Positions 905 to 20,173 of a DNA stretch of 30,045 bases are shown in pieces. Each line of letters opens with the position of its first letter. Position 1 is the stretch's first letter. The stretch covers positions 1-30,045 of the forward strand of contig JBQTGV010000064.1 in NCBI GenBank assembly GCA_052390515.1. Direction: 5' to 3'. Position numbers and translations under genes: made by a program. The stretch is from Candidatus Eiseniibacteriota bacterium. GTDB lineage: Bacteria; ARS69. Under the pieces are notes generated by a model. The model ran no database searches. It saw only the letters and a program-made list of their open reading frames with translations, and had not been told where the DNA came from.

Positions 905-913
905 GGAACCAGC

Positions 914-942: not shown

Positions 943-973
943 GGAGCCTGAACACTCTTGAGCACGCTTGCCC

Positions 974-2476
974 TCAGCGGAGGAGCACGACCGATTTCGT
1001 CTCCGTGCGTCCGCCGGAGACCGCCCGGACGAAGTACATGCCCGCGGGGACGCCGCTGCTGCGGGATGGATCGACCGTCCACGCCAGCGCGAGGACTCCG
1101 GCGCGCGAGAATCCCTCGTGGAGCCGGCGCACGAGACGGCCGCTCACGTCGTAGACGCAGACTTCGACCTCTCCGTCGCGGTCGAGCTGGAGGTCGAGAC
1201 GCGTGCTTCGCGTGAAGGGATTCGGGCGCGCCGGTCCGAGGCCGAACTTCCCGGGCTGCCCGGCCTCGATCGAATCGCTGGCGGGGTGTCGGAGGATCTT
1301 GAAGACCTCGCCGCCGAGGTCGATGATGTACAGCTCGCCGTTCGCGTCTTCGCCGAATCCCGAGATCGAGTTGATGGTCGCGTTCGGCGGATCGAGCGCC
1401 GTGGTCCAGTTCGTGGAGTCGACCATCGCCCCCCCCTCGAACGCGATGCTGAAGATCTGGTCCGAGCAGTAGTCGGCGAAGAAGTAGAGGCCCTGGATCG
1501 CGGGGATCTGCGATCCGCGATACACGTAGCCGCCCGTCACGGAGCACGCGGTGCCGTGGCCGTACTCGAGCACCGGATCGACGAGCCCGGCTCCGCAAGG
1601 AGCCTGCGTGCAGTCGAAGTGGTTCGCCTCGTTGAAACAGTGCAGTCCCTCCATCACGTCCCAGCCGTAGTTCTCCCCGCCGGAGGAGGCCGGAGTGAAG
1701 TTGATCTCCTCCCAGCAGTTCTGGCCGACGTCGGCGATCCACATGTCTTGCGTGTCTCGATCGAAGCTCCAGCGGTAGGGATTGCGCAGGCCCAGCGCCC
1801 AGATCTCGTCGCGGACGCTCGCGTTACCGACGAAGGGGTTCGTCGACGGGATAGCGTAGTTGTTGTTCGGGTCGGCCGGGAGCGCGTCCGGGCCGTCCAC
1901 GTCGAGCCGCAGCATCTTCCCGAGCAGGTTCATTCCGTTCTGCGCGCGGTCGGCCGGGTCCCCGGCGCTCCCGCCGTCTCCGAGGCCGAGGTACAGGTAA
2001 CCGTCCGCGCCGAACGCGATCTGACCGCCGTTGTGGTTCACGAAGGGTTGCGTCACGGTGAAAACGCGGAAGCCACTCGTATCATCGGCCAGGTCGGGAT
2101 TCGCGGAGACGTTGTAGCGGAAGATGGTGGAAGCCCCCGCGCCGGCACCCTCGGTGAAGTAGACGAAGAACCGGCCGTTGCTCGCGTAGTCAGGATGGAA
2201 CGCGAGACCGAGGAGACCCTGCTCGTTGAAGACATCCAGCACGATGCTCTGGATGTCCAGGAACGGCGTCGGCAGCAGCGTGCCGTCGTCGATGATGCGG
2301 ATGAGCCCCGGCCGCTCGAGGACGAAGAGTCTCGACGCGTCGTCCGGCGGGGTCGTGAGGTACACTGGGTTGTTGAGTCCGGACGCGATTCGCTGCGAGA
2401 TGATCTGAGCGGACGCGGGTGCCGTCACCAGCAGCCCCGCGACGACTGCGGCGGTGAGTTGGGCCACGCGGTGCAT
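974..2476 (-). CDS. Secreted PQQ-dependent glucose/sorbosone dehydrogenase family protein with a C-terminal FlgD/T9SS-like domain
   Basis: Start revised to ATG 2476 (GGAGA SD, signal peptide MHRVAQLTAAVVAGLLVTAPASA). Motifs EQGLLGLAFHPDY, NHNGGQIAFGADGYLY, GKMLRLD, GLRNPYRWSFD, SVTGGYVYRG. Tail PNPF…VYDVSGRLVRRL…GMYFVR. Confidence 0.9.
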   Translation of the reverse strand: MHRVAQLTAAVVAGLLVTAPASAQIISQRIASGLNNPVYLTTPPDDASRLFVLERPGLIRIIDDGTLLPTPFLDIQSIVLDVFNEQGLLGLAFHPDYASNGRFFVYFTEGAGAGASTIFRYNVSANPDLADDTSGFRVFTVTQPFVNHNGGQIAFGADGYLYLGLGDGGSAGDPADRAQNGMNLLGKMLRLDVDGPDALPADPNNNYAIPSTNPFVGNASVRDEIWALGLRNPYRWSFDRDTQDMWIADVGQNCWEEINFTPASSGGENYGWDVMEGLHCFNEANHFDCTQAPCGAGLVDPVLEYGHGTACSVTGGYVYRGSQIPAIQGLYFFADYCSDQIFSIAFEGGAMVDSTNWTTALDPPNATINSISGFGEDANGELYIIDLGGEVFKILRHPASDSIEAGQPGKFGLGPARPNPFTRSTRLDLQLDRDGEVEVCVYDVSGRLVRRLHEGFSRAGVLALAWTVDPSRSSGVPAGMYFVRAVSGGRTETKSVVLLR

Positions 2477-2638
2477 GTCGTCTCCGGTGCGTGGGGTACG
2501 GCGGAAGGGGGAAAGCCGGAGAGATTCTAGCCGAATCGACCAGCCTTCGCCCCCCGGGCCGTCTCGATTCCTCCATCTCGTTGCGGCGGCGACTCTTGGT
2601 GGCTCGCGAGGAGGGTGCGGTGCACGTAGCTCAAGAGA

Positions 2639-2654
2639 GTTAAGTAGACTTGAC
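2639..2654. promoter_or_regulatory. Imperfect palindrome, candidate repressor operator overlapping the porin -35
   Basis: GTTAAGT-AG-ACTTGAC; arms match 6/7; AT-rich patch in a GC-rich background. Confidence 0.5.
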
Positions 2655-2678
2655 ATGATACTCGGATCCCCGTAGGTT
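2650..2678 (+). promoter_or_regulatory. Sigma70 promoter of the porin gene
   Basis: Perfect TTGACA (2650-2655), 17 nt, TAGGTT (2673-2678); GGAGG SD at 2716-2720 before ATG 2727. Confidence 0.7.
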
Positions 2679-2726
2679 GCCCCCCGAGTCGAACGTGGAC
2701 GGCGAACCGAACACCGGAGGGACGAG

Positions 2727-4004
2727 ATGCGGAAGCAGGCATGGGTGATCTCCTTGGCGCTCGCGGCCGGCTTGGGCCAGGCGGAGCCAAGGTCGGCCCA
2801 AGCGGACCCGGCGGACGACGAGATCCGCGAGCGGCTCGAAGTGCTGACGGAGGAGGTGCGCGACCTGCGCGAGCAGCTAGCCATTCCCGCGACCGACGAG
2901 GAGCTGGAGAGCCGCCACGGGCTCGGGCCGGCGGCGAGCCGGGTGTACGGCCGGAACCCTGGGCTCTCCATCGGAGGTTACGGTGAGTTCCACTTCGCCC
3001 AGCCGACCGGCGACGCCTCGGACCGGCGCGCGGACTTCCTGCGCTTCATCACGTACTTCGGGTACAAGTTCTCGGAGAGCATCGTGATGAACACCGAGAT
3101 CGAGTTCGAGCACGCCACGACGTCACCGAACTTCGAGGGCCGCGTGGGCGAAGTCTCGGTCGAGTTCGGCTACGTCGACTTCCTGCTCGACGAGGCGGCG
3201 AACGTCCGCGCCGGCACCGTGCTCCTGCCGATGGGCTTCGTGAACCGGATTCACGAGCCCCCGTTCTTCCGCGGGAACGTCAGGCCTGAGGTGGAGACGC
3301 GGCTCATCCCGACGACTTGGCGGGAGCTCGGGGTCGGCCTTCATGGCGAGAGTGCCTCGCGCGTGCGTTACGAGGCATACGTGGTGAACGGCTTCGACGC
3401 GATGCGCTTCACCGCGAACGGCGTCCGCGACGGACGCCAAAGGGGCAACCGCCCCATCTGGGAGGACGTCGGCGGGGTGGTCTCCCTGGAGGTGACCGCC
3501 GCCCCGGGGCTTCGCCTCGGTGGATCGGGGTACTACGGGGAGGCGGACCAGAACCGGGACTTCGACGGGGGAGAGGTCTCCGCGACCGTGCGGATCGCCG
3601 AGGCTCACGCGGAGTTGCGGAGCGGTCGTTTCGAGGCACGCGGGCTCCTCGCCGGAGTGGCGCTCGGGGACGCCGGTGCATTGTCAGCGGAACTCGGCGA
3701 GGTGATTCCCGAGGCGCAGCGCGGGTGGTACGTGGAGGGTGCGTACGACGTGGCGCCCTGGCTCGGGCTCGCCCCTTCGACGAGGCTTCTCGCCTGGGCC
3801 CGCCGCGAGCAGTGGAACCTGCACGACGAGGTCCCGACGGGTCTCGCCGCCGACCCGGCGAGGGAAGGGGCAGCCACGGCGCTCGGGCTCGAGCTCTTCC
3901 CGCATCCTTCAGTCGTGGTCAAGGCGGACGTTACCATCGAGGAGCGCGAGTCGGACGACGAGACCGCGGACCCGCTCCGCGTCGGCATCGGCTTCGTGTT
4001 CTGA
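2727..4004 (+). CDS. Outer-membrane porin (OprO/P-like beta-barrel) with an N-terminal coiled coil
   Basis: Signal peptide; coiled coil IRERLEVLTEEVRDLREQ; GLSIGGYGE, NTEIEFEHA, VEFGYVDF, IPTTWRELG; C-terminal VGIGFVF (BAM signal ending in Phe). Confidence 0.85.
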   Translation: MRKQAWVISLALAAGLGQAEPRSAQADPADDEIRERLEVLTEEVRDLREQLAIPATDEELESRHGLGPAASRVYGRNPGLSIGGYGEFHFAQPTGDASDRRADFLRFITYFGYKFSESIVMNTEIEFEHATTSPNFEGRVGEVSVEFGYVDFLLDEAANVRAGTVLLPMGFVNRIHEPPFFRGNVRPEVETRLIPTTWRELGVGLHGESASRVRYEAYVVNGFDAMRFTANGVRDGRQRGNRPIWEDVGGVVSLEVTAAPGLRLGGSGYYGEADQNRDFDGGEVSATVRIAEAHAELRSGRFEARGLLAGVALGDAGALSAELGEVIPEAQRGWYVEGAYDVAPWLGLAPSTRLLAWARREQWNLHDEVPTGLAADPAREGAATALGLELFPHPSVVVKADVTIEERESDDETADPLRVGIGFVF

Positions 4005-4023
4005 CGTTCGCGCTGCAAAGAGA

Positions 4024-4052
4024 AGCCCCCCGGCCCGGGAGGACGGGGGGCT
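4024..4052. terminator. GC-rich hairpin between convergent genes, probable bidirectional intrinsic terminator
   Basis: AGCCCCCCG (4024-4032) pairs with CGGGGGGCT (4044-4052); followed by GTCGTTTCGTT on + and TCTCTTT on -. Confidence 0.65.
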
Positions 4053-4077
4053 GTCGTTTCGTTCGTCGAGCGTGCTG

Positions 4078-4632
4078 CTAGAAGTACAGGTGGAACCCGG
4101 CGTCGCCCAGGGACGCGCCATGGGAGTGGAAGTCCGTCGTGCTGTCTCCACCCTCGCCGCCGTCGTTGATCTGGGCGTGGATGCCGTGCCGGACGCTGAA
4201 GCTGAGGCACTCGAGGAGCCAGAGCTCCGCCTCGAACTCTGCGCCGATGGCGAAGTCCATCAGCGACTCGCCGTCCACGTCGATGTCACCGTCACCATCG
4301 GTGTCGATGTCCTCGAACGAGTGTGCGTCGAGCGCGAAGAACGGCCGGAAGTGGAGCCACACGTCGCTGCACTCCCAGACGAAGACCGGGATCCCGAATA
4401 GCAGATGGAACGCCGACGACAGATCTCCGGATCCGGACTCCACGTCGTAGATCCAGAACCCGGCCTCGGCGTCGATCGCGACCTTCTGACTGGCCCAGTA
4501 GCGGATCCCGATCGGCGTTTCGCTCAAGTCACTGGAACCCAGGGCGAGCTGACCCGCCGTCGGTCCGGCGAAGGCCGAACTCGCCGCGACGAGCATCGAG
4601 ATCGCGGCGATCAGAACAAGCGACTTCCGCAT
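4078..4632 (-). CDS. Small outer-membrane beta-barrel protein with an acidic DxDxDG loop
   Basis: Start revised to ATG 4632 (GGAGGA SD); signal peptide MRKSLVLIAAISMLVAASSAFA; amphipathic strands; C-terminal AGFHLYF. Confidence 0.8.
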   Translation of the reverse strand: MRKSLVLIAAISMLVAASSAFAGPTAGQLALGSSDLSETPIGIRYWASQKVAIDAEAGFWIYDVESGSGDLSSAFHLLFGIPVFVWECSDVWLHFRPFFALDAHSFEDIDTDGDGDIDVDGESLMDFAIGAEFEAELWLLECLSFSVRHGIHAQINDGGEGGDSTTDFHSHGASLGDAGFHLYF

Positions 4633-4824
4633 GGAAAGTATCCTCCGTCGATTCCCCACCGGGCCTCGGTCCCTCCGCTGCCCGAGCCGGAGCCGCCCCC
4701 TGCGGGCGCCCGGCCTTCACGTCCCCCTGGCCGCCCTCCCGGATTCGCGACGCCACCGCGCGGTCGGCGCCGCCCGGTGAGGATGGACCACCGAGGTGCC
4801 CCCGGATCCCTCCGGAGCGCCGCG

Positions 4825-4853
4825 AGGATCCCCGAATACGGGCGACCTGTAAA
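4825..4853 (-). promoter_or_regulatory. Possible sigma70 promoter for the 4078-4632 gene
   Basis: TTTACA (4853-4848), 17 nt, GATCCT (4830-4825); weak -10. Confidence 0.3.
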
Positions 4854-4860
4854 GGCTGAA

Positions 4861-4912
4861 GACCCGGCCGGAGGGCCGGGGAATCCCCCCGAGCCCCCGG
4901 AACGGCCGGGTC
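4861..4912 (-). terminator. Inverted repeat downstream of the PorT-like gene, possible terminator
   Basis: GACCCGGCCG (4861-4870) is the reverse complement of CGGCCGGGTC (4903-4912); followed on - by TTCAGCCTTT. Confidence 0.5.
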
Positions 4913-4936
4913 CGAGGAACCCGCCGCAGTCCGCCC

Positions 4937-5611
4937 TCAGCGGAACGCGAACGTGCCCAGAACGGTGAAGACGCCGTTCTTGATCTCGCCGTCCGACCCG
5001 CTGTCGTCCACGTTGGTCACCCCGAACGTGTAGCGGGCGTCGAATCCGAGGGTCTGCGCGCCTGCCCCGAGCGGGAACTCCATGCCGCCGCCGACCACGA
5101 GCCCCAGGTCGATCTTCTTGACCTCATCGGAGATGTCTTCGCTGAGGTCCACGGAGCTGCCGCCGGACTCTCCGGACGCGACCAAGTCGGCCGACAGGTT
5201 GATTGCGAGGGAAGGTCCCACCAGTAGGATCGGGCGAGCCGGAGCGCCCGGGGCGAAGCCGAAGCGGGCGAGAACCGGGACCTCCAGGTAGGTGGCCTCG
5301 ACCGCGACGGTTCCGTCGAGCTGGATCGTCTGCCCGTCGATGTCGAACGTGCCGGAGATGTCTTCCTCGTCGCCCTTCATCATGTACAGGACTTCCGGCT
5401 GGATGGAGATGAAGTCGTTCACGGGGAAGTGCGCGAAGCCCCCGAAGCCTGCCGCCTTCCGGGAGTCCTGCAACTCGTCGGCTTCGTCGTCGGCGCTCAG
5501 GTTGGCGATGTTCAATCCGCCCTTCACGCCGAAGTGCGCGTCGACGGCGAGCGCGGGGCCCGCCAGCAGCCCGACCGTCGCGACGACGACGGAAACCAGG
5601 ATCCGCACCAT
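4937..5611 (-). CDS. Outer-membrane beta-barrel porin-family protein (OMP_b-brl_2 / PorT-like)
   Basis: Signal peptide; FGVKGGLNIA, SIQPEVLYMMKG, YLEVPVLARF, GPSLAINL, FDARYTFG; AGGAGG SD. Confidence 0.85.
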   Translation of the reverse strand: MVRILVSVVVATVGLLAGPALAVDAHFGVKGGLNIANLSADDEADELQDSRKAAGFGGFAHFPVNDFISIQPEVLYMMKGDEEDISGTFDIDGQTIQLDGTVAVEATYLEVPVLARFGFAPGAPARPILLVGPSLAINLSADLVASGESGGSSVDLSEDISDEVKKIDLGLVVGGGMEFPLGAGAQTLGFDARYTFGVTNVDDSGSDGEIKNGVFTVLGTFAFR

Positions 5612-5833: not shown

Positions 5834-7300
5834 CTACCCCGCGGCGACCACCACCGACTTGGTCTCCAGGTAGCACTCCAGCGCCTCGTTGCCGTGCTCG
5901 TGCCCGAGGCCGCTCTGCTTGAACCCGCCGAACGGCAGCTCGTCGTAGATCTTCGTGATCGAGTTGATCCAGGTGTACCCGGCCTCGATCCGCTCGGCTG
6001 CGGCGGTGGCCTGATCCAGGTCCTTGGTCCAGATGGACGATCCCAGTCCGAAGATCGTGTCATTGGCTCGCTCGATCGCCTCCTCGAGCGTCTTCACGCG
6101 GAAGAGCGGGACGGCCGGACCGAACACCTCCTCGGTGGCCATGCGCGAGTCCGGGGAGACGTCGGCCAGCACGGTGGGAAGGTAGAAGTGACCCTTCGCG
6201 TAGCGCTCGCCTTCGGGACGGCGGCCCCCGGCGAGCACCTTCGCTCCCTTGGCGACGGCGTCGGCCACCTGCGCCTCCACCTCGGCGCGCTGTGCCGCGG
6301 TGTGCAACGGCCCGAGGCGAACACCCTCGTCGCTGCCCGGACCGACGGTGAGCCGCTTCACCTTGGCCACGAGCTTCTCGGTGAACTCGTCGGCGATCTT
6401 CTCGAAAAGGAAGATGCGCTTGATGGCCAGACAGGCCTGCCCACAGTTGAAGAAGCGGCCGACCGACGCGGCGGAGACGGCGCCGTCCACGTCGGCGTCG
6501 TCGCACACGATCATCGGGTCCGAGCCGCCGAGCTCCAGCGTCACATGCTTGATCGTGGCCGCCGCGCCAGCCATCACGCGCCGGCCGGTCTCGGTCGCGC
6601 CGGTGAATCCGATCTTCGCGACGAGCGGGTGCGTGACCAGCGCTTCGCCGACCTTCGAGCCGGTGCCGAGCACCGTGTTCACGATGTTGGCGGGAAGCCC
6701 GGCCTCGTGCAGGAGCCGGATGATCCGCGTCGACGTGAGCGGCGTGGTCTGCGCCGGCTTGACCACCATCGTGTTGCCGGCCACGAGCGCCGGCGCCAGC
6801 TTGTTGCCCAGCAGGGAGAGCGGGAAGTTCCACGGGACGATGGCCGCGCAGACGCCGATCGGCCGCTTGATGATCAGGCCGTGGCGGTGCGGGTTCTCGT
6901 CCAGGTCGGGCACGTACCCGCCGCGCAGGTTCTTGGCGAGACCGGCGTAGTGCTCCAGCGTGTGGGCCAGCCGGTGCACTTCCATGCGCGCCTCGGCCAG
7001 CGGCTTGCCCTGCTCGGCGGTGAGCAGCGTGGCCAGCTCCTCGGCGTGGTCGACGAGCGCCTCCGCGCAGCGATAGACGATCCTGCCGCGCGCCGACGCC
7101 GGAGTCCGCCACCATCCCGGGAACGCGGCATGGGCTCCTCGCACGGCCCGATCCACGTCCTCCGCGGTCCCGTCGGGGGTCTGCCCCACGACGGCGCCGT
7201 TCGCCGGGTTCCGGATCTCCCGGACCTCGCCGCCGCGCGCGGGGGCGGCGGACTCGCCGCCGATGAAGAACTGCGTCATCTCGCCCAAAGCCTCCGCCAT
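5834..7300 (-). CDS. NAD(P)+-dependent aldehyde dehydrogenase (paralog 2, last gene of the operon)
   Basis: Start revised to ATG 7300 (AAGGAG SD). PWNFP, FTGATETG, LELGG (catalytic Glu), FNCGQAC (catalytic Cys), EEVFGP, PFGGFKQSG. Confidence 0.95.
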   Translation of the reverse strand: MAEALGEMTQFFIGGESAAPARGGEVREIRNPANGAVVGQTPDGTAEDVDRAVRGAHAAFPGWWRTPASARGRIVYRCAEALVDHAEELATLLTAEQGKPLAEARMEVHRLAHTLEHYAGLAKNLRGGYVPDLDENPHRHGLIIKRPIGVCAAIVPWNFPLSLLGNKLAPALVAGNTMVVKPAQTTPLTSTRIIRLLHEAGLPANIVNTVLGTGSKVGEALVTHPLVAKIGFTGATETGRRVMAGAAATIKHVTLELGGSDPMIVCDDADVDGAVSAASVGRFFNCGQACLAIKRIFLFEKIADEFTEKLVAKVKRLTVGPGSDEGVRLGPLHTAAQRAEVEAQVADAVAKGAKVLAGGRRPEGERYAKGHFYLPTVLADVSPDSRMATEEVFGPAVPLFRVKTLEEAIERANDTIFGLGSSIWTKDLDQATAAAERIEAGYTWINSITKIYDELPFGGFKQSGLGHEHGNEALECYLETKSVVVAAG

Positions 7301-7317
7301 CGTCTCGCTCCTTGCGG

Positions 7318-7854
7318 CTATCCCTGCTCGCCGACCGGCTTGCCCAGCCGATCGTAGAGCGACATGAGAAACTGATAATGATCCGCGGCCGTCTTGACGT
7401 GCTCGAGGGCCGCGCCCTCCACCATCTTCTTGGCCACCGCGGGGAGTCCCGCGGCGAGCGTCCACGGCGGGATCCGGTCGTTCTCCCGCACCACGCTCCC
7501 TGCGGCGACGAGCGCGCCCTCGCCGACCCGCGCTCCGTCCAGCACCGTCGCGTTCATTCCGATCAGGGCGAAGTCTTCGATCACGCAGCCTTCCAGCACG
7601 GCGGAGTGCCCGATGGTCACGTTCCGGCCGAGAATCGTCCCGTTCGGCTCGTTGCAGTGCATCACCGTGTTGTCCTGCACGCTCGACTTCTCTCCGATGC
7701 GGATGATGTTCTGGTCGGCGCGCAGCACGACACCGAACCAGACGTTGGCGTGCGCCTCGATCACCACCCGCCCGACGAGTGTGGCGTTCGGCGCGACGAA
7801 CGCGGTGGGGTGGATTTCCGGGGTCCAGCCGCGGACCGGGACGATGAGCGCCAT
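7318..7854 (-). CDS. Gamma-carbonic-anhydrase-like hexapeptide-repeat protein (PaaY/CaiE/YrdA family)
   Basis: PEIHPTAFVAPNATLVG, VWFGVVLRAD, SVQDNTVMH, TIGHSAVLEGC, LIGMNATVLDGA. Confidence 0.9.
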   Translation of the reverse strand: MALIVPVRGWTPEIHPTAFVAPNATLVGRVVIEAHANVWFGVVLRADQNIIRIGEKSSVQDNTVMHCNEPNGTILGRNVTIGHSAVLEGCVIEDFALIGMNATVLDGARVGEGALVAAGSVVRENDRIPPWTLAAGLPAVAKKMVEGAALEHVKTAADHYQFLMSLYDRLGKPVGEQG

Positions 7855-7855
7855 C

Positions 7856-8638
7856 CTACTCTCCGTGGAACCTCGGGTCTCGCTTCTCCCGGAACGCGCG
7901 CACCCCTTCGCGGTGATCCGACGTCTTCAGCGCGACGCTCTGCGCCAGCGCCTCCAGTGCGTGGCCGGCGTGCACGTCGACGTCTGCCGCGGCGTTGAGC
8001 AGCCGTTTGGTCAGCCCGAGCGCGAGCGGTGCGCGTTCCACCAGCATCCGGGCCCGCGCATACGTCTCGTCCATGAGCCGGTCCGCGGGGACGACGGCGT
8101 GGACGAGCCCGGCGGCGAACGCCTCCTCGGCCGAGGCCAGATCACCGGCGAAGTAGAGCTGCTTGGCGCGAGAGAGGCCGATCAGCTTCACCAGACGGGT
8201 CGCGCCGCCGTGTCCCGGCACGAGCCCCAGGCGATGCTCGCGGTAGCCGAGCCGCGCTCCCTCGGCGGCGAAGCGCAGGTCGCAGGCCAGGGCGAGCTGC
8301 AGCCCGGCTCCGGTGGCGGACCCGTGGATCGCGGCGATGACCGGCTTCTCCAGCATCTCCAGCTCGTCGAAGAACGCGGAGAGCCGGCGGCTCTTCGCCC
8401 GGAACGCGGCCGTATTCCACTCCCGATCGAAGTGCTCGACCGAGCCGCCCGAGCAGAACGCGCGGCCGGCTCCGGCGAAGACAACGACGCGGATGGCGGC
8501 GTCGTCCGCGAGACGGAGCCCGAGCTCGCCGAAATCCTCGCGCATGTCGTCGTCGATCGCGTTGAGCTGCTCGGGGCGATTCAGCGTGATCGTGGCGATC
8601 GAGTCGCGGACTTCGAAGAGGATCCGGCGGAAGCTCAT
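7856..8638 (-). CDS. Enoyl-CoA hydratase/isomerase (crotonase) with a single catalytic Glu
   Basis: Start ATG 8638 (ATGA overlap). TLNRPEQLNA, AFCSGG, ATGAGLQLALACD, REHRLGLVPGHGG, DHREGVRAFREKRDPRF. Confidence 0.92.
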   Translation of the reverse strand: MSFRRILFEVRDSIATITLNRPEQLNAIDDDMREDFGELGLRLADDAAIRVVVFAGAGRAFCSGGSVEHFDREWNTAAFRAKSRRLSAFFDELEMLEKPVIAAIHGSATGAGLQLALACDLRFAAEGARLGYREHRLGLVPGHGGATRLVKLIGLSRAKQLYFAGDLASAEEAFAAGLVHAVVPADRLMDETYARARMLVERAPLALGLTKRLLNAAADVDVHAGHALEALAQSVALKTSDHREGVRAFREKRDPRFHGE

Positions 8639-8844
8639 CCGCGCTCCGGGTTCTCGACCTCGGAGGGGCTCCGCCAGCGGATGCGGTGGAACGGGCTGCC
8701 GCACGTGCGGCAGATGTACGGCTCGGTCATGTGGAAGGCGCCGAACGCGCCGAAGCGCTCCGTGTCCAGGGAGCCGCAGTAGGGGCATGGGCCGCGCGCC
8801 CCTCGCTCGGCGATCCACCGTCGGTGCAGGGCCTCGCGATTCAC
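8635..8844 (-). CDS. Stand-alone Zn-ribbon protein resembling the PaaD C-terminal domain
   Basis: GTG start overlaps the PaaC-like stop (GTGA) and its stop overlaps the next ATG; 69 aa with CPYCGS…FG…CRTCGSPF, like the PaaD CPxCGS…FGSTACK…CxxCxEPF tail. Confidence 0.75.
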   Translation of the reverse strand: MNREALHRRWIAERGARGPCPYCGSLDTERFGAFGAFHMTEPYICRTCGSPFHRIRWRSPSEVENPERG

Positions 8845-9623
8845 TTCGAGCCGAGCCTCCGTGCCGCCGCATCCCATTGGCTCCATGGGACGAGCGGGGT
8901 TCCGAGGTCGGCGAGCCCCGCTCCGTCGAGCGTCCGGCGCACCTCGTGCAGGAAGCGCCGCCGCAGCGCGGCCGAGTCCTCGGCGGTGACCCCTTCGGCG
9001 CGCGCGGTGCGGAAGACCGGGTCGTCGTCCGGGCCGAACCACGCGACGGTCTCCGGCCAGATCCGCTTCAGGGCCGACTGCAGCTCGCCGCGGGAAGCGG
9101 GGTCCTGGGCGAGGACTTCGAGCCAGCCCTGCGCGTAGAGCCGGTGGTAGTGCTCCTCCTGCAGGACCTTCGCCGCGCGGTGGCGGAAGGGCTGGTACGC
9201 CGACGAGCGCAGCGACTCCACCACCGTACCGAGCGCCCGGCCGAAGAGCGCGCACGCCGCGATCAGGTCCGCCCAACGCGCGAAAGGCTCGTCCAGGAAG
9301 GAGACGTTGCGGAGGTCGGAGCGATCCTCCTCGCGGCGGAGCTCCGGGGGCGCGCCCGGGAACTGCCGGAGCAGCGGGTAGAGGCTGCGCGCGTGCCCGA
9401 GCTCGTCGGAGGTCATCGACGCCGCGGCGACGGACGCTTCGAGCGTCGGTCCAGCCGTCGACCACTCCGCGTAGCGCCGCCCGAGCTTGTACTTGTTGTC
9501 GCCGAGCGTGACGAGCAAGGCGAGGATGGCGTCGCGGCCCGCGGGGGTGAAAGCTTCCACCTGCGCGGACTCCGCCGTGGCGACGTCCTTGAGGTCCGCC
9601 TCGCGGTCCTTCATGAAGCTCAC
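8841..9623 (-). CDS. PaaC-like (PaaA_PaaC ferritin-like) structural subunit of an aryl-CoA epoxidase
   Basis: LGDNKYKLGRRYAEW…PTLEASVA…DELGHARSLY, LRSSAY, KVLQEEHYH…W; GTGA overlap with the upstream gene. Confidence 0.85.
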   Translation of the reverse strand: MSFMKDREADLKDVATAESAQVEAFTPAGRDAILALLVTLGDNKYKLGRRYAEWSTAGPTLEASVAAASMTSDELGHARSLYPLLRQFPGAPPELRREEDRSDLRNVSFLDEPFARWADLIAACALFGRALGTVVESLRSSAYQPFRHRAAKVLQEEHYHRLYAQGWLEVLAQDPASRGELQSALKRIWPETVAWFGPDDDPVFRTARAEGVTAEDSAALRRRFLHEVRRTLDGAGLADLGTPLVPWSQWDAAARRLGSK

Positions 9624-9811
9624 GCGCGGTTCTCCTCGATGGCCCAGCCGATCGCGCTGGCCGGGATGGCCACCAGCTCGAGCCAGTCCCCGCCGTGCTG
9701 CCGTTCCACTTCCGCTTCCACGCGCGCTCCCGCGGCGATGGTGACGACGCCGATGCGGGTGAGCGCGGCGTCTTCCCGCCGGCGCCCGAACACCTCGTAC
9801 TTCTCGTCCAT
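9620..9811 (-). CDS. PaaB-like small subunit (copy 2, divergent)
   Basis: 63 aa; YEVFGR…LTRIGVV…WLELVAIPASAI follows the PaaB WEVF.R…H.G.L.A…WVV…I pattern; tightly packed in the operon. Confidence 0.65.
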   Translation of the reverse strand: MDEKYEVFGRRREDAALTRIGVVTIAAGARVEAEVERQHGGDWLELVAIPASAIGWAIEENRA

Positions 9812-9816
9812 GAAGA

Positions 9817-10038
9817 TCAGCTCCGATCGATGACGGTGACGATATCCGAACGTCGCGCGACGATCATCTCGACCCAGGGGCTCTCCTGGTACATCTGGAA
9901 CGCGTAGGCGCGCGCCAGGCTCGGGCTCGGCGCGATCACGTCGCCGATCTGGTGCAGCTCCGTCTCATCGCGGGTGCGGGCGAACACGTCCCACACCTCG
10001 CCGCTGGGCTTCGCCTCGTTGTCCTTGCGAATCGACAT
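9817..10038 (-). CDS. PaaB-like small subunit (copy 1)
   Basis: Start ATG 10038 (or GTG 10041) overlapping the DUF59 stop; WDVFAR…LHQIGDVIAP…ARAYA…Y…WVEMIVARRSDI. Confidence 0.75.
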   Translation of the reverse strand: MSIRKDNEAKPSGEVWDVFARTRDETELHQIGDVIAPSPSLARAYAFQMYQESPWVEMIVARRSDIVTVIDRS

Positions 10039-10364
10039 CACACGATCCCCCAGGTGCTGAGCGCGGCGACACCGCGTTCGGTGAGGCGGCTCCTGTCCCA
10101 CGGCGGGTCCCACACGACTTCCACGTGCACCGCCTGCACGCCGGGCTCGCGCAGCAGGCGCTGCCTCACGTCGTCGATCAGGAACTCCATGGCCGGGCAG
10201 CCCATCGCCGTGAAGGTCATGCGGACCTCCACGCGGCCGCCGGGTCCGCTTTCCAGACCGTAGATCAGCCCCAGGTCGACGACGTCCAGCGGGAGCTCCG
10301 CGTCGGGCACGTCGTGCAGACAGGCGAGGAGCCGTTCGTCGCCGGCGGAGGGCGCCTCCGGCAT
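10038..10364 (-). CDS. DUF59/SufT (PaaD N-terminal-like) metal-cofactor assembly protein
   Basis: Start ATG 10364 (TGATG overlap). LHDVPDAELPLDVVDLGLIY, MTFTAMGCP, VVWDPPW; ends without a Zn ribbon (108 aa). Confidence 0.9.
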   Translation of the reverse strand: MPEAPSAGDERLLACLHDVPDAELPLDVVDLGLIYGLESGPGGRVEVRMTFTAMGCPAMEFLIDDVRQRLLREPGVQAVHVEVVWDPPWDRSRLTERGVAALSTWGIV

Positions 10365-11332
10365 CAGTGGATCTCCCGGGAGAGCATGTCCGCCACCTGG
10401 CGGTGTCCACGCTGCAGGAGCTCGACGAACTCGTCGTTCTTCGGACCGCGCGCGCGCCAGCGCTTCATGACCGAGGGGCTGCTCGAGCCGTCGTCCAGCC
10501 ACTCGATGGGGCCCTCGTCGAAGAGCCAGCGCTTCTCGCCGGCGTCGAACTCGCTGGGGAACGGATAGTCGATGACGTGCTCGCCCTTCGCCTCGTCCCA
10601 GTGCACCGGGACGTCGATCCCCAACGAGCGCAGGAACGGGATGGCCGTGGACATCCAGGTCTGGCGCAGCTGGTCGTTGCTCTGACCCTTGAAGCCGTAC
10701 TCGAGCTGCACCTTCTGGGTCTTCAGCGAATCGGGAAGCCCGAACCACTCCAGCGTGAGCGGCAGCATCCAGTCCACCGCCCGCTGCAGCCTCTCGTGCC
10801 CGTCGGCCGACTGGTTGATCTTCTTCATCCAGGTTTCGCCGTGGCGCAAGTGGAAGTTCTCCTCCTTGTCCACCTTCACGAGCGCCCGCTTCCACGGCGC
10901 GAACGTGGTGTTGTGGAACACGTCGGCCAGGAGCACGAACCCGGCGCGGTCGTACAGCGCGTTCGCCACGGCCAGCTCGACCCACGTGTCCAGGGGGACG
11001 TCGAACGCGTACGGGTACTTGAAGCTGTTCGCGTCCCGCTCGTAGATCAGTTGCTCCTTGTCGACACCCAGGTCCTCCATCAGCCGGTAGGCGATGTGCG
11101 CGTGTCCCAGCTCGTCCTGGATGATGCCCATCGCGGAGATGAAGGCATTGATGGTCGGCGCGTCCTTCGCGGCGTGGAGGTACGCCGGTGCGGAGACCAG
11201 CTCCGTGTCCGCGGACACGGTGAGGATGCGCAGCATGCCCTGCAGGTACTTCTCCGACATCTGGTCCCGCGACTCGATCAGCCGTCCCGAGGAGAGGCGG
11301 CTGACGACGTCCTGCTCGCTGACGAGAGACAT
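10364..11332 (-). CDS. Divergent PaaA-like diiron catalytic subunit of an aryl-CoA epoxidase/monooxygenase
   Basis: Full carboxylate-diiron ligand set ADTE / QDELGH / LYDRAG / KEENFH; AVDW…EWFG, SNDQLRQTW; AGGAG SD. Confidence 0.88.
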   Translation of the reverse strand: MSLVSEQDVVSRLSSGRLIESRDQMSEKYLQGMLRILTVSADTELVSAPAYLHAAKDAPTINAFISAMGIIQDELGHAHIAYRLMEDLGVDKEQLIYERDANSFKYPYAFDVPLDTWVELAVANALYDRAGFVLLADVFHNTTFAPWKRALVKVDKEENFHLRHGETWMKKINQSADGHERLQRAVDWMLPLTLEWFGLPDSLKTQKVQLEYGFKGQSNDQLRQTWMSTAIPFLRSLGIDVPVHWDEAKGEHVIDYPFPSEFDAGEKRWLFDEGPIEWLDDGSSSPSVMKRWRARGPKNDEFVELLQRGHRQVADMLSREIH

Positions 11333-11343
11333 TCGCTCCTCCG

Positions 11344-12126
11344 CTACCGCCCGGTGTAGACCGGCTGCCGCTTCTCGGCGAAAGCCGTGAAGCCCTCCTT
11401 GGAGTCGTCGCTGTCGAAGAGCGGCTCGATGAGCTCACGCTCCAGCTTCAGCGCGTCGGAAAGCGGCAGCTCGAGCCCTTCGTACACCGCCTGCTTGATC
11501 TTGGCGACGGCCAGCGTCGCGCCGGAGGCCAGCCGCCGCGCGTACTTCATGGTCTCCTCCTGGAACGAGCTCTCCGGGAAGAGCCGGTCGACGATCCCCA
11601 GCTCGTGCGCGCGGCGCGGACCCACGGGCTCGCCGGTGATCATGAGGTCGAGCGCCCTGGCGCGTCCGATCAGGCGGGGAAGACGCTGCGTGCCGCCGTT
11701 GCCGGGCAGCAGCCCCAGCGTCACTTCGGGCAGGCCGATGCGGAAGTCTCCGTCCGACGCGAAGCGCAGGTCGCAGGCCAGCGCCATCTCCAGCCCGCCG
11801 CCGAGCGCGTGACCGCTCACCGCCGCGATGAACACTTTGGGCGAATGCCCCATCTTGCGCAGCGTCTGATGAGCGAAGCGGATCATCTTCATGTTCGCCT
11901 TCGTCGAGTTGCCCTGGAACGCCTTGATGTCCGCTCCGGCGGAGAAGAACTTGTCGAGACCGCTGCGCAGCACGACCACCTTGATCGCGTCGTTGCCGTT
12001 CATCGACTCGATGGCCTGATCGAGCTCCTCCATGAACGCGAGGTCGTAGCTGTTCGCCTTCGGATGATTCAGCGTGATCGTTCCGACCGCGCCATCCTCG
12101 GCGGCGATCACTCTCGGTTCGGACAT
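11344..12126 (-). CDS. Enoyl-CoA hydratase/crotonase with both catalytic Glu; BoxC-like N-terminal signature
   Basis: Start revised to ATG 12126 (GGAG SD). KANSYDL, FFSAGADI, ALGGGLEMALACD, GLPEVTLGLLPGNGGTQRLPR, EGFTAFAEKR. Confidence 0.92.
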   Translation of the reverse strand: MSEPRVIAAEDGAVGTITLNHPKANSYDLAFMEELDQAIESMNGNDAIKVVVLRSGLDKFFSAGADIKAFQGNSTKANMKMIRFAHQTLRKMGHSPKVFIAAVSGHALGGGLEMALACDLRFASDGDFRIGLPEVTLGLLPGNGGTQRLPRLIGRARALDLMITGEPVGPRRAHELGIVDRLFPESSFQEETMKYARRLASGATLAVAKIKQAVYEGLELPLSDALKLERELIEPLFDSDDSKEGFTAFAEKRQPVYTGR

Positions 12127-12187
12127 GAACGGGACTCCCAAGGATGGCGGCGCAGCGGCCCCGGGCCGCGCGCCGCGTGGATGTCGG

Positions 12188-13672
12188 TCAGGCGAGGCCG
12201 CCGATGACGGCGCCCTTGCGCTCCTGGTAGTACTCCATCGCCTCGGGACCGTGCTCGTGGCCGATCCCCGACGCCTTCACCCCGCCGAAGGGCAGCTCGT
12301 CGTACCCGTAGTGGATCTGGTTCACCCAGGTGACGCCGGACTGGATTTCGCGGATGGCTTGGTTCGTCCAGGTGAGGTTCTGCGTCCAGATGGACGAGCC
12401 CAGCCCGTACTGGTTGTCGTTGGCCAGAGCGACGGCCTCGTCCAGATCCTTGACCTTGAACACGGGCAGCACCGGACCGAAGACCTCCTCCTGCACGAGA
12501 CGCGAATCGTGCGGTACGGCCGCGACGACCGCGGGCTGGAAGAAGTGCCCGTTCCCGAGCGAGGCATCCGACGGACGCTTGCCGCCGATGAGCACCTTCG
12601 CGCCGCGCTTCACCGCGTCGGCGAGCTGCGACTCGATCTCGTCGCGCTGCGCCGCGGTGTGCAGCGGTCCCATGCGGATCTTGGGCTTCTCCGGCCGCGT
12701 GGCCGGATCCCCCGGCTCGTAGGCCGCCACCTTCTCCAGGAGCCCCTTGAGGAACTCGTCGTGGATGGCCTCGTGCAGGTAGAGACGCTTCACCGCGAGG
12801 CAGGCCTGACCGCAGTTCCAGAACCGTCCGATGAGCGCACCCGAGACGGCCTTCTTGATGTCCGCGTCGGGCATCACGATCATCGGATCCGAGCCGCCGA
12901 GCTCCAGCGTGATGCGCTTGAACTGCGGTCCAGCGATCTCCATGACGCGACGTCCGGTCGCCGACTCGCCGGTGAAGGCGATGCGCCGCACGACCGGGTT
13001 CTCGAGCAGCTCTTCGCCGACCTCGCGGCCGGGCCCGGTGATGCAGTTCAGCACGCCCGGTGGCAGCCCGGCCTCGTTGAACAGCCCGATGATCCGCAGC
13101 GTGGTGAGCGGAGTGGAGCTCGCCGGCTTCACCACCACGGTGTTCCCGGCCGCCAGCGCCGGCCCGATCTTCGTGCCCATCAGCGTGATGGGGAAGTTCC
13201 ACGGGACGATCGCGCCGCACACCCCCACCGGCCGCTTGAGCACCAGCCCGTAGCTGTGCTTGCCCATGTCCGGCGGAAGGGGGACCATCGAGCCGCGGAT
13301 CTTGGAGGCGAGGCCGGCGTAGAACGTCATGCCGTGCAGGAAGTGATGGATCTCGCCCGCGGCCTCGAAGACCGGCTTGCCCTGCTCCCGGGACAGCAGC
13401 GCGGAGAGCTCCTTCTGCTGCTCACGGACCTTCTGGATGCCCTGCATCATCAGGGCGGCGCGCTCGTCCGGCGACGTGTCCGCCCACGCGGGAAACGCGT
13501 TCTCCGCGGCCTGGACGGCGGCACGTGCGTCGGCCCGGCTCCCCCGGGGCACGGAATCCACCACCGACCCGTCGAACGGGTTGAGGACGTCCTGGGTATC
13601 GCCGCTCCGGGCGGCGGTCCACTCGCCGTTCACGAACATCCCGGACACGCTGGGGCTGGCCACCTCGGTCAT
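12188..13672 (-). CDS. NAD(P)+-dependent aldehyde dehydrogenase (paralog 1, first gene of the operon)
   Basis: Start revised to ATG 13672 (GAGAGGGAG SD). PWNFP, FTGESATG, LELGG, WNCGQAC, EEVFGP, PFGGVKASG. Confidence 0.95.
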   Translation of the reverse strand: MTEVASPSVSGMFVNGEWTAARSGDTQDVLNPFDGSVVDSVPRGSRADARAAVQAAENAFPAWADTSPDERAALMMQGIQKVREQQKELSALLSREQGKPVFEAAGEIHHFLHGMTFYAGLASKIRGSMVPLPPDMGKHSYGLVLKRPVGVCGAIVPWNFPITLMGTKIGPALAAGNTVVVKPASSTPLTTLRIIGLFNEAGLPPGVLNCITGPGREVGEELLENPVVRRIAFTGESATGRRVMEIAGPQFKRITLELGGSDPMIVMPDADIKKAVSGALIGRFWNCGQACLAVKRLYLHEAIHDEFLKGLLEKVAAYEPGDPATRPEKPKIRMGPLHTAAQRDEIESQLADAVKRGAKVLIGGKRPSDASLGNGHFFQPAVVAAVPHDSRLVQEEVFGPVLPVFKVKDLDEAVALANDNQYGLGSSIWTQNLTWTNQAIREIQSGVTWVNQIHYGYDELPFGGVKASGIGHEHGPEAMEYYQERKGAVIGGLA

Positions 13673-13818
13673 TCGAAATCTCCCTCTCGAAGCTCGTGGC
13701 TCCACCCGCGGGCGCGCGACCGCGCGCCGCGCCCGGAGGAGCCTCGAGAAAGCCTTTCCGGATGCGGATGTGCGCGCTTCGGACCGGCGGCTGGAGGGCG
13801 CGCAACCAAAGACGGATC

Positions 13819-13848
13819 AATGTATTCGAGGCCCCGGAGGGCAGTCAA
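13819..13848 (-). promoter_or_regulatory. Sigma70 promoter of the aromatic catabolic operon
   Basis: TTGACT (13848-13843), 18 nt, TACATT (13824-13819), in an AT-richer patch upstream of the first ALDH. Confidence 0.65.
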
Positions 13849-13861
13849 GGGCGGACGGGCG

Positions 13862-14149
13862 CTACCGCGGAGGGACGTCCGGGGGGGCAGGCGCCAGGGC
13901 CCGATGGGACCCGTCGCAGAACGGCCTCTTGCCGCTCCGCCCGCACTGGCAGATGGCGTAACGCCGCGCTTCCGTGATTTCCACGACGTACGGTGTCTTC
14001 CCGGTCTGCTTGCGCTCGTGGCTCCCGTCGCAGAACGGCGGGGTGGCGGTCTCGCCGCAGGCGCAGAATTCCCTTCGCCCGGGTTCGAGGTCGCCCTTCC
14101 AGGGTCCTGAAGCGTACGGCACGTCGCCTCCCGGCCGCGAGTTTCGCAC
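13862..14149 (-). CDS. Tandem CDGSH [2Fe-2S] protein (CISD3/MiNT-like)
   Basis: Two C-x-C-x8-C-D-G-S-H motifs: CACGETATPPFCDGSH and CQCGRSGKRPFCDGSH. Start could instead be GTG 14122 (GGGAGG upstream). Confidence 0.9.
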   Translation of the reverse strand: MRNSRPGGDVPYASGPWKGDLEPGRREFCACGETATPPFCDGSHERKQTGKTPYVVEITEARRYAICQCGRSGKRPFCDGSHRALAPAPPDVPPR

Positions 14150-14202
14150 GCCCCCTCGGATAGCGCGAGCCCGGCACGGCGGATCCCGGTATCATCGCGC
14201 AC

Positions 14203-15063
14203 ATGAGCGGCGAAGTTCAGCGCGTGGCGGTTCTCGGCGCGGGCACCATGGGGCACGGCATCGCCCAGGTGGCCGCCCAGTCCGGCTTCGACGTGACCCT
14301 GTTCGACGTGGACCGCACGGTCCTCGAGCTCGGGCTCGAGCGGATCCGGGGGAACCTGGCGAAGGGCGTCGAGAAGGGCAAGGTCTCCGCCGCGGACCGG
14401 GACGAGGCGCTCGCGCGGATCCGCGGCGCGCTCGACCTGGGTGACGCGGCCGCCGCCGCCGACCTGGTGATCGAGGCCACGCCGGAGCGGATGGACCTCA
14501 AGGCGAAGCTCTTCGCCGAGCTCTCGCGGGTGACGGCTCCCGATGCCGTGCTCGCCACCAACACGTCGTCCCTCCCGGTGAGCGACATCGCCGCCGCCGC
14601 GACGGAGCCGGCGCGCGTGCTCGGCATGCACTTCTTCAATCCGCCCTACGTGCTCACGCTGCTCGAGATCGTGCGCGCGCGGCAGACGTCCGAAGCGACG
14701 CTCGACACGGCGAAGCGCGTCGCCGAGCGGATGGGGCGCGACGTGATCGTCGTGAAGGACTCGCCGGGGTTCGCCACGAGCCGGCTCGGCGTCGCGCTGG
14801 GCCTCGAAGCGATGCGCATGCTGGAGGACGGGGTTGCGTCGGCCGAGGACATCGACCGGGCGATGAAGCTGGGCTACCGGCATCCGATGGGACCGCTCGA
14901 GCTCACCGACCACGTGGGTCTGGACGTTCGCCTGGCGATCGCGGAGCACCTGCACCGTGAGGTGGGAGAGCAGTTCCGTCCGCCGGAGATCCTCCGCCGC
15001 CTGGTCTGCGAGGGGAAGCTCGGCAAGAAGACCGGCGTCGGATTCCACCGCTGGGACCGCTGA
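14203..15063 (+). CDS. 3-hydroxyacyl-CoA dehydrogenase (Hbd/PaaH-like, single module)
   Basis: GAGTMGHGIAQ, IEATPE, LATNTSSL, GMHFFNP, DSPGF, PMGPLELTDHVGLDV, GKLGKKTG. TATCAT -10 lies 7 nt upstream. Confidence 0.95.
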   Translation: MSGEVQRVAVLGAGTMGHGIAQVAAQSGFDVTLFDVDRTVLELGLERIRGNLAKGVEKGKVSAADRDEALARIRGALDLGDAAAAADLVIEATPERMDLKAKLFAELSRVTAPDAVLATNTSSLPVSDIAAAATEPARVLGMHFFNPPYVLTLLEIVRARQTSEATLDTAKRVAERMGRDVIVVKDSPGFATSRLGVALGLEAMRMLEDGVASAEDIDRAMKLGYRHPMGPLELTDHVGLDVRLAIAEHLHREVGEQFRPPEILRRLVCEGKLGKKTGVGFHRWDR

Positions 15064-20167: not shown

Positions 20168-20173
20168 CGGGCG

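Follow-up and report, generated by a model that had tools for sequence, protein, structure and literature searches.

We examined a 30,045-nucleotide stretch of a Candidatus Eiseniibacteriota genome (contig JBQTGV010000064.1, positions 1 to 30,045; hereafter the window) that carries, on its minus strand from 14149 to 5834, an operon of twelve tightly coupled open frames built around relatives of the phenylacetyl-CoA oxygenase subunits PaaA, PaaB, PaaC and PaaD. We propose, with a probability that we put at roughly one in two, that this operon encodes an uncharacterised Paa-type multicomponent oxygenase for benzoyl-CoA-type substrates rather than phenylacetyl-CoA. Judged by its sequences, the cluster around the PaaA-like subunit (A′) is an enzyme type separate from canonical PaaA; its neighbours in other microbes include benzoate-type CoA ligases, so that breakdown of benzoate-like acids is its probable role. 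The cluster is ancient and widespread, is annotated wrongly as PaaA, and most likely serves benzoate-type rather than phenylacetate catabolism.

The G+C content of the window is high (66-75%), which makes raw open reading frame (ORF) lists noisy, and coding frames were chosen by third-position G+C (GC3), by which one frame per stretch stands out. All 13 reading frames, counting those of the operon and a divergent 3-hydroxyacyl-CoA dehydrogenase (HADH), are open, with GC3 of 0.85-0.98 in all but the first gene of the operon. Each gene was assigned to a family by Pfam and NCBIfam profile searches. The operon runs in the order CDGSH-type Fe-S protein, aldehyde dehydrogenase 1 (ALDH1), crotonase 1, A′, DUF59 protein, PaaB-like 1 and 2, PaaC-like C′, Zn ribbon, crotonase 2, PaaY-like protein and ALDH2. 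Neighbouring genes overlap at their start and stop codons or are separated by 1-61 bases, the sole exception being a 190-base gap after the CDGSH gene, and 54 bases separate that gene from the dehydrogenase. A sequence-only reading of the window had described eleven of these genes and the divergent dehydrogenase. The observation of the operon is confirmed, with all of these genes in place and all but PaaB-like 2 matched in Pfam or NCBIfam; what the list had overlooked is the gene heading the operon, which encodes the CDGSH protein (95 aa, 13862-14149; PF09360, 70.3 bits, two CDGSH motifs; GC3 0.82-0.88). The same reading had noted that the window holds no MaoC domain, PaaE, CoA ligase or thiolase, and Pfam searches of the flanking ORFs and tblastn with E. 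coli Paa proteins agree.

The PaaA-like subunit belongs to a separate clade

Both large subunits belong to family PF05138, with scores of 200 bits for A′ (322 aa, 10364-11332) and 137 bits for C′ (260 aa, 8841-9623) against a gathering score of 28.5; these and all further operon coordinates are on the minus strand. A′ aligns with the solved E. coli and Klebsiella PaaA chains over 250 residues (phmmer against the PDB, E 1e-24). The diiron ligands are retained, as had been read from the sequence: all six (E44, E74, H77, D128, E158 and H161) align with those of E. coli PaaA (E42, E72, H75, D126, E155 and H158). Their canonical context is indeed missing, with ADTE...AAKDAP...GIIQDELGH in the window where E. 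coli has HSE...NWITRAP...AKVQDEAGH. A′ is 28% identical to E. coli PaaA and 60-95% identical to members of its own clade, and it scores 125 bits on the PaaA equivalog TIGR02156 against a cut-off of 280.

In a search of 1.84 billion cluster representatives, 901 matched at E 0.001 or better. A phylogenetic tree was built with 46 rows and PaaC as the outgroup; 17 rows were left out as fragmentary, apparently chimeric or with a partial low-scoring alignment. It separates an 18-row superclade containing the window A′ (support 98/91) from a 20-row group (98/92). The latter is made up of the canonical clade, 15 rows including E. coli PaaA (100/100), and a further 5 rows that form a third group. A′ is thus placed outside bona fide PaaA, in a sister superclade, in line with the sequence-only reading. 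According to the available part of one study (PMC4498308), a ‘lysine bridge’ between Lys68 and Glu49 is the mark of canonical PaaA. The corresponding positions of A′ are I70 and Y51. The lysine is absent from 18/18 superclade rows, which have Ile, Leu, Val, Ala or Ser there, and present in 13/13 canonical rows, while the Glu49 equivalent in the superclade is mostly Tyr. The iron ligands, by contrast, are retained in the superclade rows.

C′ scores 97 bits on TIGR02158 (cut-off 133) and is placed among the PaaC rows of the tree. It retains both ExxH motifs, and its first Glu ligand is replaced by Lys. More generally, the C′ proteins of this cluster type, unlike E. coli PaaC, have both ExxH motifs, usually the Asp, and a conserved Lys for the first Glu. 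The window C′ has Gly at the Asp126 equivalent, where 21/23 PaaC-type relatives of the same table have Asp.

Two small paralogous proteins appear to take the place of PaaB. PaaB-like 1 (73 aa, 9817-10038) reaches 18.6 bits on PF06243, below the cut-off of 27, and subunit B is likewise under its equivalog cut-off (18 against 85 bits); the two best PDB matches of a ten-sequence profile are the PaaB chains 3EGR and 4IIT_B (E 0.001 and 0.0045). PaaB-like 2 (63 aa, 9620-9811) has no family match and resembles the profile of PaaB-like 1 (hhalign, 97.6% probability, E 2.9e-12). A model of the two as a heterodimer has an ipSAE of 0.84 against 0.02 for the best control, with runs agreeing in at least 98% of contacts and a partner pLDDT of at least 90. 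The score mark is reached by 58/80 solved complexes and 2/110 mismatched pairs; since PaaB homodimers have been solved, a pass may reflect likeness and not binding of this particular pair. PaaB-like 1 also weakly matches TIGR04031, ‘Htur_1727 family rSAM-partnered candidate RiPP’ (25 bits, cut-off 57), a family that may, from this match, be related to PaaB-like proteins.

PaaD is split in two. The DUF59/SufT-like protein (108 aa, 10038-10364; PF01883, 51 bits) corresponds to positions 1-88 of the PaaD model TIGR02159 and the Zn ribbon (83 aa as called, start uncertain, 8635-8886; PF23451 Zn_ribbon_PaaD, 37 bits) to positions 104-143, so that together they make up the two halves of E. coli PaaD. 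The DUF59 protein scores 83 bits on NF041868 and 55 bits on TIGR02159 (cut-off 108), under the cut-off in both cases, and the ribbon scores 21.7 bits on NF041869. A canonical haloarchaeal cluster has the same split, and its 56-aa ribbon is called ‘PaaE’ by NCBI.

Conserved synteny and neighbouring CoA ligases

We found 4312 relatives of A′ at E 0.001 or better, the best 120 of which are 65-95% identical to it. Two clade-specific peptide patterns, run on a collection with one genome per species, matched at least 599 stretches, of which at least 551 were confirmed as this cluster type. Synteny was counted over 80 loci that were kept. These include metagenome-assembled genomes (MAGs) labelled Gemmatimonadota (80-84% identity), Anaerolineae, KSB1, Ktedonobacteria (among them the cultured Thermogemmatispora and Ktedonosporobacter), Rubrobacter, Deinococcus and Acidobacteria. 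Further out, at 38-50% identity, the A′ type is seen in Bacillus, Paenibacillus, Dormibacteraeota and haloarchaea.

The gene order of the cluster type is A-DUF59-B-(B)-C-Zn. The DUF59 gene directly follows A′ in 79/80 loci, and the contig of the 80th ends there. PaaB-like 1 is found in 71 loci, the PaaC-like subunit in 74 and the Zn ribbon, at 50% coverage or more, in 36. The flanking enzymes are more variable: ALDH1 is present in 32 loci, the pair ALDH1-crotonase 1 lies immediately upstream in 26, the PaaY-like gene occurs in 21 and ALDH2 in 16, and all seven flanking enzyme genes are found together in 9. With the A-DUF59 pair in 79 loci and the seven flanking enzymes in 9, the operon is far beyond chance. 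PaaE, PaaI and PaaZ were found in 0/80 loci, the first by tblastn with E. coli PaaE at E 1e-5, which also had no match in the window's own genome; homologous operons thus carry neither paaE nor paaZ, as the sequence-only reading of the window's operon would have it.

Unassigned neighbouring ORFs were clustered and representatives scanned against families. Recurrent neighbours are a TetR regulator (19-20 of the 80 loci), Amidohydro_2 (13), family-I CoA transferases (5) and SRPBCC proteins (5), along with parts of Liv-type ABC transporters, thiolases and a 520-aa AMP-binding enzyme. The thiolases next to the clusters of Rubrobacter share 53-55% identity with E. coli PaaJ. In the MAG loci L008-L012, SRPBCC/polyketide-cyclase-like and M28 peptidase genes lie between ALDH1 and crotonase 1.

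The AMP-binding enzyme belongs to the benzoate-CoA ligase family TIGR02262 (663 bits, cut-off 375). The nearest solved chains to the ligase of one locus (L022) are the anthranilate-CoA ligase 4WV3 and the benzoate-CoA ligases 2V7B and 4EAT. A TIGR02262 ligase lies in or beside the operon in 8/80 loci, mostly co-directional with the operon genes and abutting them. The eight loci come from Anaerolineae, Acidobacteria, a Chloroflexia MAG, Rubrobacter (two loci), Deinococcus and two other MAGs. A review, in its available part, states that aryl-CoA ligase genes usually sit beside the genes of their pathway (PMC8388817). The sequence-only reading had looked to the ligases of homologous operons to tell benzoate from phenylacetate; the benzoate-CoA ligase family is found at these eight loci, and distant PaaK-like genes at 2-3 of the 80. 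At the level of whole genomes, 7/10 cluster-bearing genomes outside the window's phylum have a TIGR02262 ligase. The idea that every cluster-bearing genome encodes a benzoate-type ligase does not hold for the other three.

Plasmids of cultured organisms carry the cluster as well. Seven plasmid records of Thermus thermophilus include an A′ gene (60% identity), which four of them call ‘paaA_2’; the same search gave no match for strains HB8 and HB27. Plasmid pHB5018c has an orthologue of every window enzyme (37-60% identity). The pHB5018c island begins with A′-DUF59-small ORF-C′-crotonase-(PaaY-like), followed by TetR, crotonase and ALDH genes in divergent orientation. It continues with an ABC transporter, an ALDH, a ‘benzoate-CoA ligase family protein’ (591 bits), a thiolase and an amidohydrolase, and ends with a MaoC-domain protein, a PaaI-family thioesterase, an SDR and a hydrolase. 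Plasmid pTF24b also has the ABC transporter, ALDH, ‘benzoate-CoA ligase family protein’ (591 bits) and thiolase, and two small ORFs are annotated between its DUF59 gene and paaC_2. The T. thermophilus HB8 chromosome carries a PaaR-PaaA-B-C-D-PaaZ operon with PaaK and PaaI (PMC6651687), so both oxygenase types occur within one species. IS3, IS256 and other transposase genes bracket and interrupt the plasmid islands (L094, L095 and L098), and in pTF24b a transposase lies inside the ABC transporter genes, which suggests recent mobility.

Among haloarchaea, plasmids of Haloterrigena and Halalkalicoccus carry the A′ type beside a 2Fe-2S ferredoxin, an ABC transporter and a ligase, and a Haloferax plasmid carries canonical paaABCDE. 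A few kb downstream of the cluster, Haloterrigena pHTUR01 and Halalkalicoccus plasmid 1 have two adjacent UbiD decarboxylase genes and an MBL-fold hydrolase. Haloterrigena further has a formate dehydrogenase alpha subunit and a NuoF-like gene about 8 kb from the A′ cluster.

The window's own genome (4.27 Mb, 95% complete) contains one PF05138 pair only and no PaaK (best match 23.9 bits), PaaE, PaaI or PaaX. A separate canonical paa cluster, a point raised by the sequence-only reading, was not found in this genome. Its only TIGR02262 ligase above the cut-off (503 bits) is encoded at 574-2112 of another contig, C13. Within positions 1-5260 of that contig, the ligase lies between a creatininase-family amidohydrolase, possibly a formamidase, and, on the opposite strand, a kynureninase-like gene (KYNU_C and Aminotran_5) and a tryptophan 2,3-dioxygenase (PF03301, 356 bits). 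An MqnA-like gene follows this tryptophan-to-anthranilate set. The ligase, creatininase-family gene and an SDR gene are found together again in two sister genomes, accompanied by the kynureninase-like gene in one and by the dioxygenase in the other. In a sample of nine genomes of the phylum, all from one family, the A′ cluster is present in seven, an over-cut-off TIGR02262 ligase is present in the same seven, and both are absent from the same two; a PaaK-like gene was found in 0/9 at E 1e-20. Kynurenine-pathway genes beside the cluster in other phyla were found in 0/80 loci, with one creatininase-like match, so the anthranilate idea is specific to the window's phylum. For 3-hydroxyanthranilate dioxygenase (PF06052) there was no match, an uninformative result, as control genomes gave none either. 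The genome's single match to a Rieske ring-hydroxylating alpha subunit (110 bits; C173:7608-8144) falls at the end of an 8.7-kb contig without usable context, so it could still belong to an anthranilate dioxygenase.

The genes on either side of the operon are unrelated to it: an outer-membrane barrel, glucose/sorbosone dehydrogenase, TPR membrane protein, sulfatases and succinate dehydrogenase. The segments 974-2971 and 16898-27587 encode the glucose/sorbosone dehydrogenase (with a weak match to a Por-secretion tail), a GDSL-like lipase, a GT2 glycosyltransferase, two sulfatases and an S41 peptidase.

A possible route and its rivals

The proposed oxygenase would have A′ as its catalytic and C′ as its structural subunit, along with a heterodimer of the two PaaB-like proteins, and its PaaD function would be divided between the DUF59 protein and the Zn ribbon. 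Its substrate would be the CoA thioester of benzoate or of a ring-substituted benzoate. In the window's lineage, anthranilate (from tryptophan) or benzoate is the likely feed, activated by the benzoate-CoA-ligase-family enzyme on C13. A′C′B1B2 would then oxygenate the ring, probably by epoxidation. Electrons could come from a free small Fe-S protein in place of PaaE, the CDGSH protein being the candidate carrier here and the 2Fe-2S ferredoxin in haloarchaea. Small Fe-S genes adjoin A′ in these two remote lineages, with CDGSH homologues in the same place as in the window in three of the 80 loci and the ferredoxin in the two haloarchaea.

In the second step, the two crotonases would open the ring hydrolytically and process the product. 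Crotonase 1 (260 aa, 11344-12126; PF00378, 209 bits) is of the hydratase type with both catalytic Glu residues, and the motif GGGxE...LPE is found in 37/37 aligned orthologues; its nearest solved chain is the Geobacillus kaustophilus enoyl-CoA hydratase 2PPY (257 bits). Crotonase 2 (260 aa, 7856-8638; PF00378, 190 bits) has T. thermophilus PaaG chains as its second-best solved relatives (177 bits). It keeps the equivalent of hydratase Glu164 in 27/28 orthologues, while the first Glu site varies. We rule out crotonase 2 as a PaaG orthologue, since the catalytic Asp136 of PaaG is replaced by Gly. Neither crotonase qualifies as the alternative oxepin-CoA hydrolase NF046063, on which they score 150-154 bits against a cut-off of 300.

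The aldehyde group or groups that result would be oxidised by the two ALDHs, which are paralogues with 51% identity. ALDH1 (494 aa, 12188-13672) and ALDH2 (488 aa, 5834-7300) match PF00171 with 537 and 555 bits and reach no NCBIfam equivalog cut-off. More speculatively, the presence of two ALDHs and a second crotonase might point to oxidation of the C2 formyl group and its release as CO2, where BoxC releases formate. Finally, the dehydrogenase, with thiolases encoded elsewhere, would complete a beta-oxidation-like route to 3-oxoadipyl-CoA, succinyl-CoA and acetyl-CoA. The divergent HADH (286 aa, 14203-15063, plus strand; PF02737, 217 bits, and PF00725, 103 bits) shares 40% identity with E. coli PaaH over residues 1-283 of the latter and is also divergent in three of the 80 loci. 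The remaining operon enzyme, the PaaY-like protein (178 aa, 7318-7854; Hexapep, 66 bits), belongs to the gamma-carbonic-anhydrase / left-handed beta-helix family. It is 36% identical to E. coli PaaY and scores below the cut-offs of TIGR02287 (116 against 319 bits) and NF050158 (149 against 250).

Support for a benzoyl-type substrate is consistent, if indirect: the ligases at eight loci, the Thermus plasmids and the seven-versus-two co-occurrence in the phylum all point the same way. Several observations weigh against it. An adjoining TIGR02262 ligase is found in only 8/80 loci, and in 4/36 of those with at least 8 kb on both sides. Three of the ten cluster-bearing genomes, one of them of only 1.3 Mb, have no TIGR02262 match at E 1e-90, and PaaK-like genes of 373-598 bits occur elsewhere in 4/11 genomes. 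The haloarchaeal ligases have TIGR02262 as their best family with 370 bits, just below the cut-off. The ligase of the window genome lies on a different contig and its role might be biosynthetic, and because the nine phylum genomes are kin, the co-occurrence of cluster and ligase amounts to at most two independent events. Finally, we found no biochemical or genetic study of any clade member in the open-access literature.

The strongest competitor, which we consider unlikely though worth serious attention, is a diverged phenylacetate pathway. A′C′B would be a phenylacetyl-CoA 1,2-epoxidase, with activation by a non-PaaK ligase, crotonase 2 as the isomerase, crotonase 1 as oxepin-CoA hydrolase, and the ALDHs as semialdehyde and phenylacetaldehyde dehydrogenases. 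Much about A′ fits. Its fold and nearest relatives are those of PaaA: an AlphaFold model (pLDDT 74.6) has PaaA chains as its best Foldseek matches (TM 0.73-0.78), with PaaC next, and Phe108, which orients the phenylacetyl group in E. coli PaaA, is retained. Source names, given for 51 of the 120 listed among the 4312 relatives, all read PaaA or phenylacetic acid catabolic protein. However, the lysine bridge is missing throughout the clade. The PaaY-like gene in the operon and the PaaY-like, PaaI-family and MaoC-domain genes of the islands in Thermus and haloarchaea belong to the classic accessories of paa clusters, and both ALDHs score about 390-410 bits on StyD models, though under cut-offs of 800-850. 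Phenylacetate pathways that lack PaaZ and rely on a stand-alone ALDH and a hydrolase of the crotonase type have been described (PMC9007349). On the other hand, crotonase 2 lacks the Asp136 of PaaG, and one locus (L014) has separate PaaF-, PaaG- and PaaH-like genes (46-47% identical to those of E. coli) besides crotonases 1 and 2.

A PaaK-family gene lies upstream of the cluster in two loci, with a fragment in a third, but adjoining benzoate-type ligases are four times as frequent (8 versus 2 of 80), and none of the nine phylum genomes has a PaaK-like gene. These PaaK-like neighbours are 31-34% identical to E. coli PaaK and score 270-298 bits against cut-offs of 646-700. The PaaK clade includes, at about 30% identity, ligases that activate naphthoate and phenanthroate, according to the part of a review available (PMC8388817), so such neighbours need not mean phenylacetate. 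With a chromosomal paa cluster and PaaK as in HB8 (PMC6651687), a plasmid island for phenylacetate would be redundant in a strain with both.

A slimmer chance goes to another thioester or another reaction, either hydroxylation with a 1,2-shift or action on a hydroxy-, alicyclic or hetero-aromatic acyl-CoA. The accessories do differ by lineage (Amidohydro_2, family-I CoA transferases, SRPBCC proteins and the two UbiD genes of each haloarchaeal island), Ktedonobacterial loci have crotonases and no ALDH, and three cluster-bearing genomes have neither type of ligase. There is also a published precedent in AntHIJKL of antimycin biosynthesis, a Paa-like oxygenase that reportedly hydroxylates an anthraniloyl-S-carrier protein by a 1,2-shift. 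Yet the crotonases, ALDHs, dehydrogenase and thiolase (the last in Rubrobacter and Thermus) fit ring cleavage and beta-oxidation better, and the only recurrent ligase family is that of benzoate and anthranilate. A decaying or chance arrangement without present function is highly improbable, being contradicted by conservation, with 13/13 frames open at high GC3, A′ 60-95% identical across phyla and gene order conserved in 79/80 loci; apart from the Gly at the Asp126 equivalent of C′, we found nothing in its favor.

Returning to the benzoyl-CoA-type oxygenase, we tentatively suggest a broader role, that of a non-proteobacterial aerobic CoA-dependent route for benzoate and anthranilate, which would make it, after Paa and Box, the third ‘hybrid’ pathway that epoxidises the ring. 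Such a pathway might use a Paa-fold oxygenase without a lysine bridge and draw its electrons from free small Fe-S proteins. Its range could then take in Thermus, Deinococcus, Chloroflexota, Rubrobacter and haloarchaea, with at least 551 genomes at species level, and in the window's phylum it may perhaps complete tryptophan catabolism through anthraniloyl-CoA. Zaar and colleagues reportedly described aerobic benzoyl-CoA metabolism in Bacillus stearothermophilus in 2001, for which the A′ cluster might account. Thousands of A′-type genes are filed by annotation as phenylacetate-CoA oxygenase. If the benzoyl-CoA reading is true, predictions of aromatic turnover in soils, sediments, hot springs and salterns would be wrong for whole phyla, and the natural lack of the lysine bridge would offer a comparison for the tuning of PaaA-type diiron sites. 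The genetically tractable T. thermophilus has plasmids with an entire island, from transporter and ligase to oxygenase, crotonases, ALDHs and thiolase.

Comparison with known systems

The window operon most resembles PaaABC(D)E of E. coli, Klebsiella and the Thermus chromosome in its parts: PF05138 subunits A and C, the six iron ligands, a small PaaB, and a PaaD function of DUF59 and Zn ribbon. Both also stand in a context of CoA-thioester catabolism, together with crotonases, an ALDH, a PaaY-like protein and a PaaH-like dehydrogenase. It differs in its gene order (A-D-B-B-C-Zn against A-B-C-D) and in its two PaaB paralogues. PaaE, PaaK, PaaI, PaaX and PaaZ are missing from the window genome, and the ligase neighbouring its relatives is of the benzoate family. 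The subunits themselves are also set apart, with A′ at 28% identity in a sister superclade without the Lys68/Glu49 bridge and A, B, C and D all below their equivalog cut-offs.

PaaZ-less phenylacetate variants, with a PacL-type ALDH and NF046063, share with the window the use of a stand-alone ALDH and a crotonase instead of the MaoC-ALDH fusion PaaZ. As far as the available text goes (PMC9007349), the Paraburkholderia crotonase is reported to lack both hydratase glutamates, which crotonase 1 retains, and those organisms have canonical PaaABCDE and PaaK. A 2026 survey of paa pathways, in the portion available, takes PaaA and PaaC as markers of phenylacetate potential and records ‘incomplete’ archaeal configurations (PMC13186573). 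We found no description of the clade, or of a Paa-type benzoyl-CoA oxygenase, in the open-access literature, which leaves most subscription journals outside.

AntHIJKL is reportedly a Paa-type oxygenase acting on a benzoyl-type thioester that derives from tryptophan via tryptophan dioxygenase. It differs from the proposed route in being biosynthetic and carrier-protein-bound, with a hydroxylated product. The 2-aminobenzoyl-CoA monooxygenase/reductase route of Azoarcus and Arthrobacter pAL1 is likewise aerobic and CoA-dependent and starts with an anthranilate-CoA ligase, as described in the available parts of two sources (PMC3534580, PMC8388817). Its oxygenase is a flavoprotein, unlike the diiron Paa-like complex.

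The Box pathway resembles the proposed route in its logic. It combines a benzoate-family ligase, a diiron ring oxygenase, a crotonase and an ALDH with a lower route to 3-oxoadipyl-CoA, according to the available text of PMC4498308. The window oxygenase is multi-subunit where BoxB is monomeric, the window has two ALDHs, and its 260-aa crotonases have one PF00378 domain where BoxC, in the same text, has about 550 aa and two domains. The sequence-only reading had called the operon a Paa/Box hybrid. In terms of homology this fails: there is no BoxB or BoxC relative, and the Box likeness lies only in crotonase and ALDH. We reject kinship of A′ with BoxB: a phmmer search of the PDB at E up to 1 gave no BoxB chain, nor did one appear in the first 50 fold matches. 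The GDTE motif that the sequence-only reading had cited for BoxB therefore carries no weight. The BoxB model TIGR03225 has no match in the window genome at E 0.001, and no BoxA-type reductase turned up, although no search was aimed at BoxA. What stands of that interpretation is a multi-subunit Paa-type oxygenase outside canonical PaaA. If its substrate is indeed a benzoyl-CoA, it would be a second, evolutionarily independent benzoyl-CoA ring oxygenase beside BoxB.

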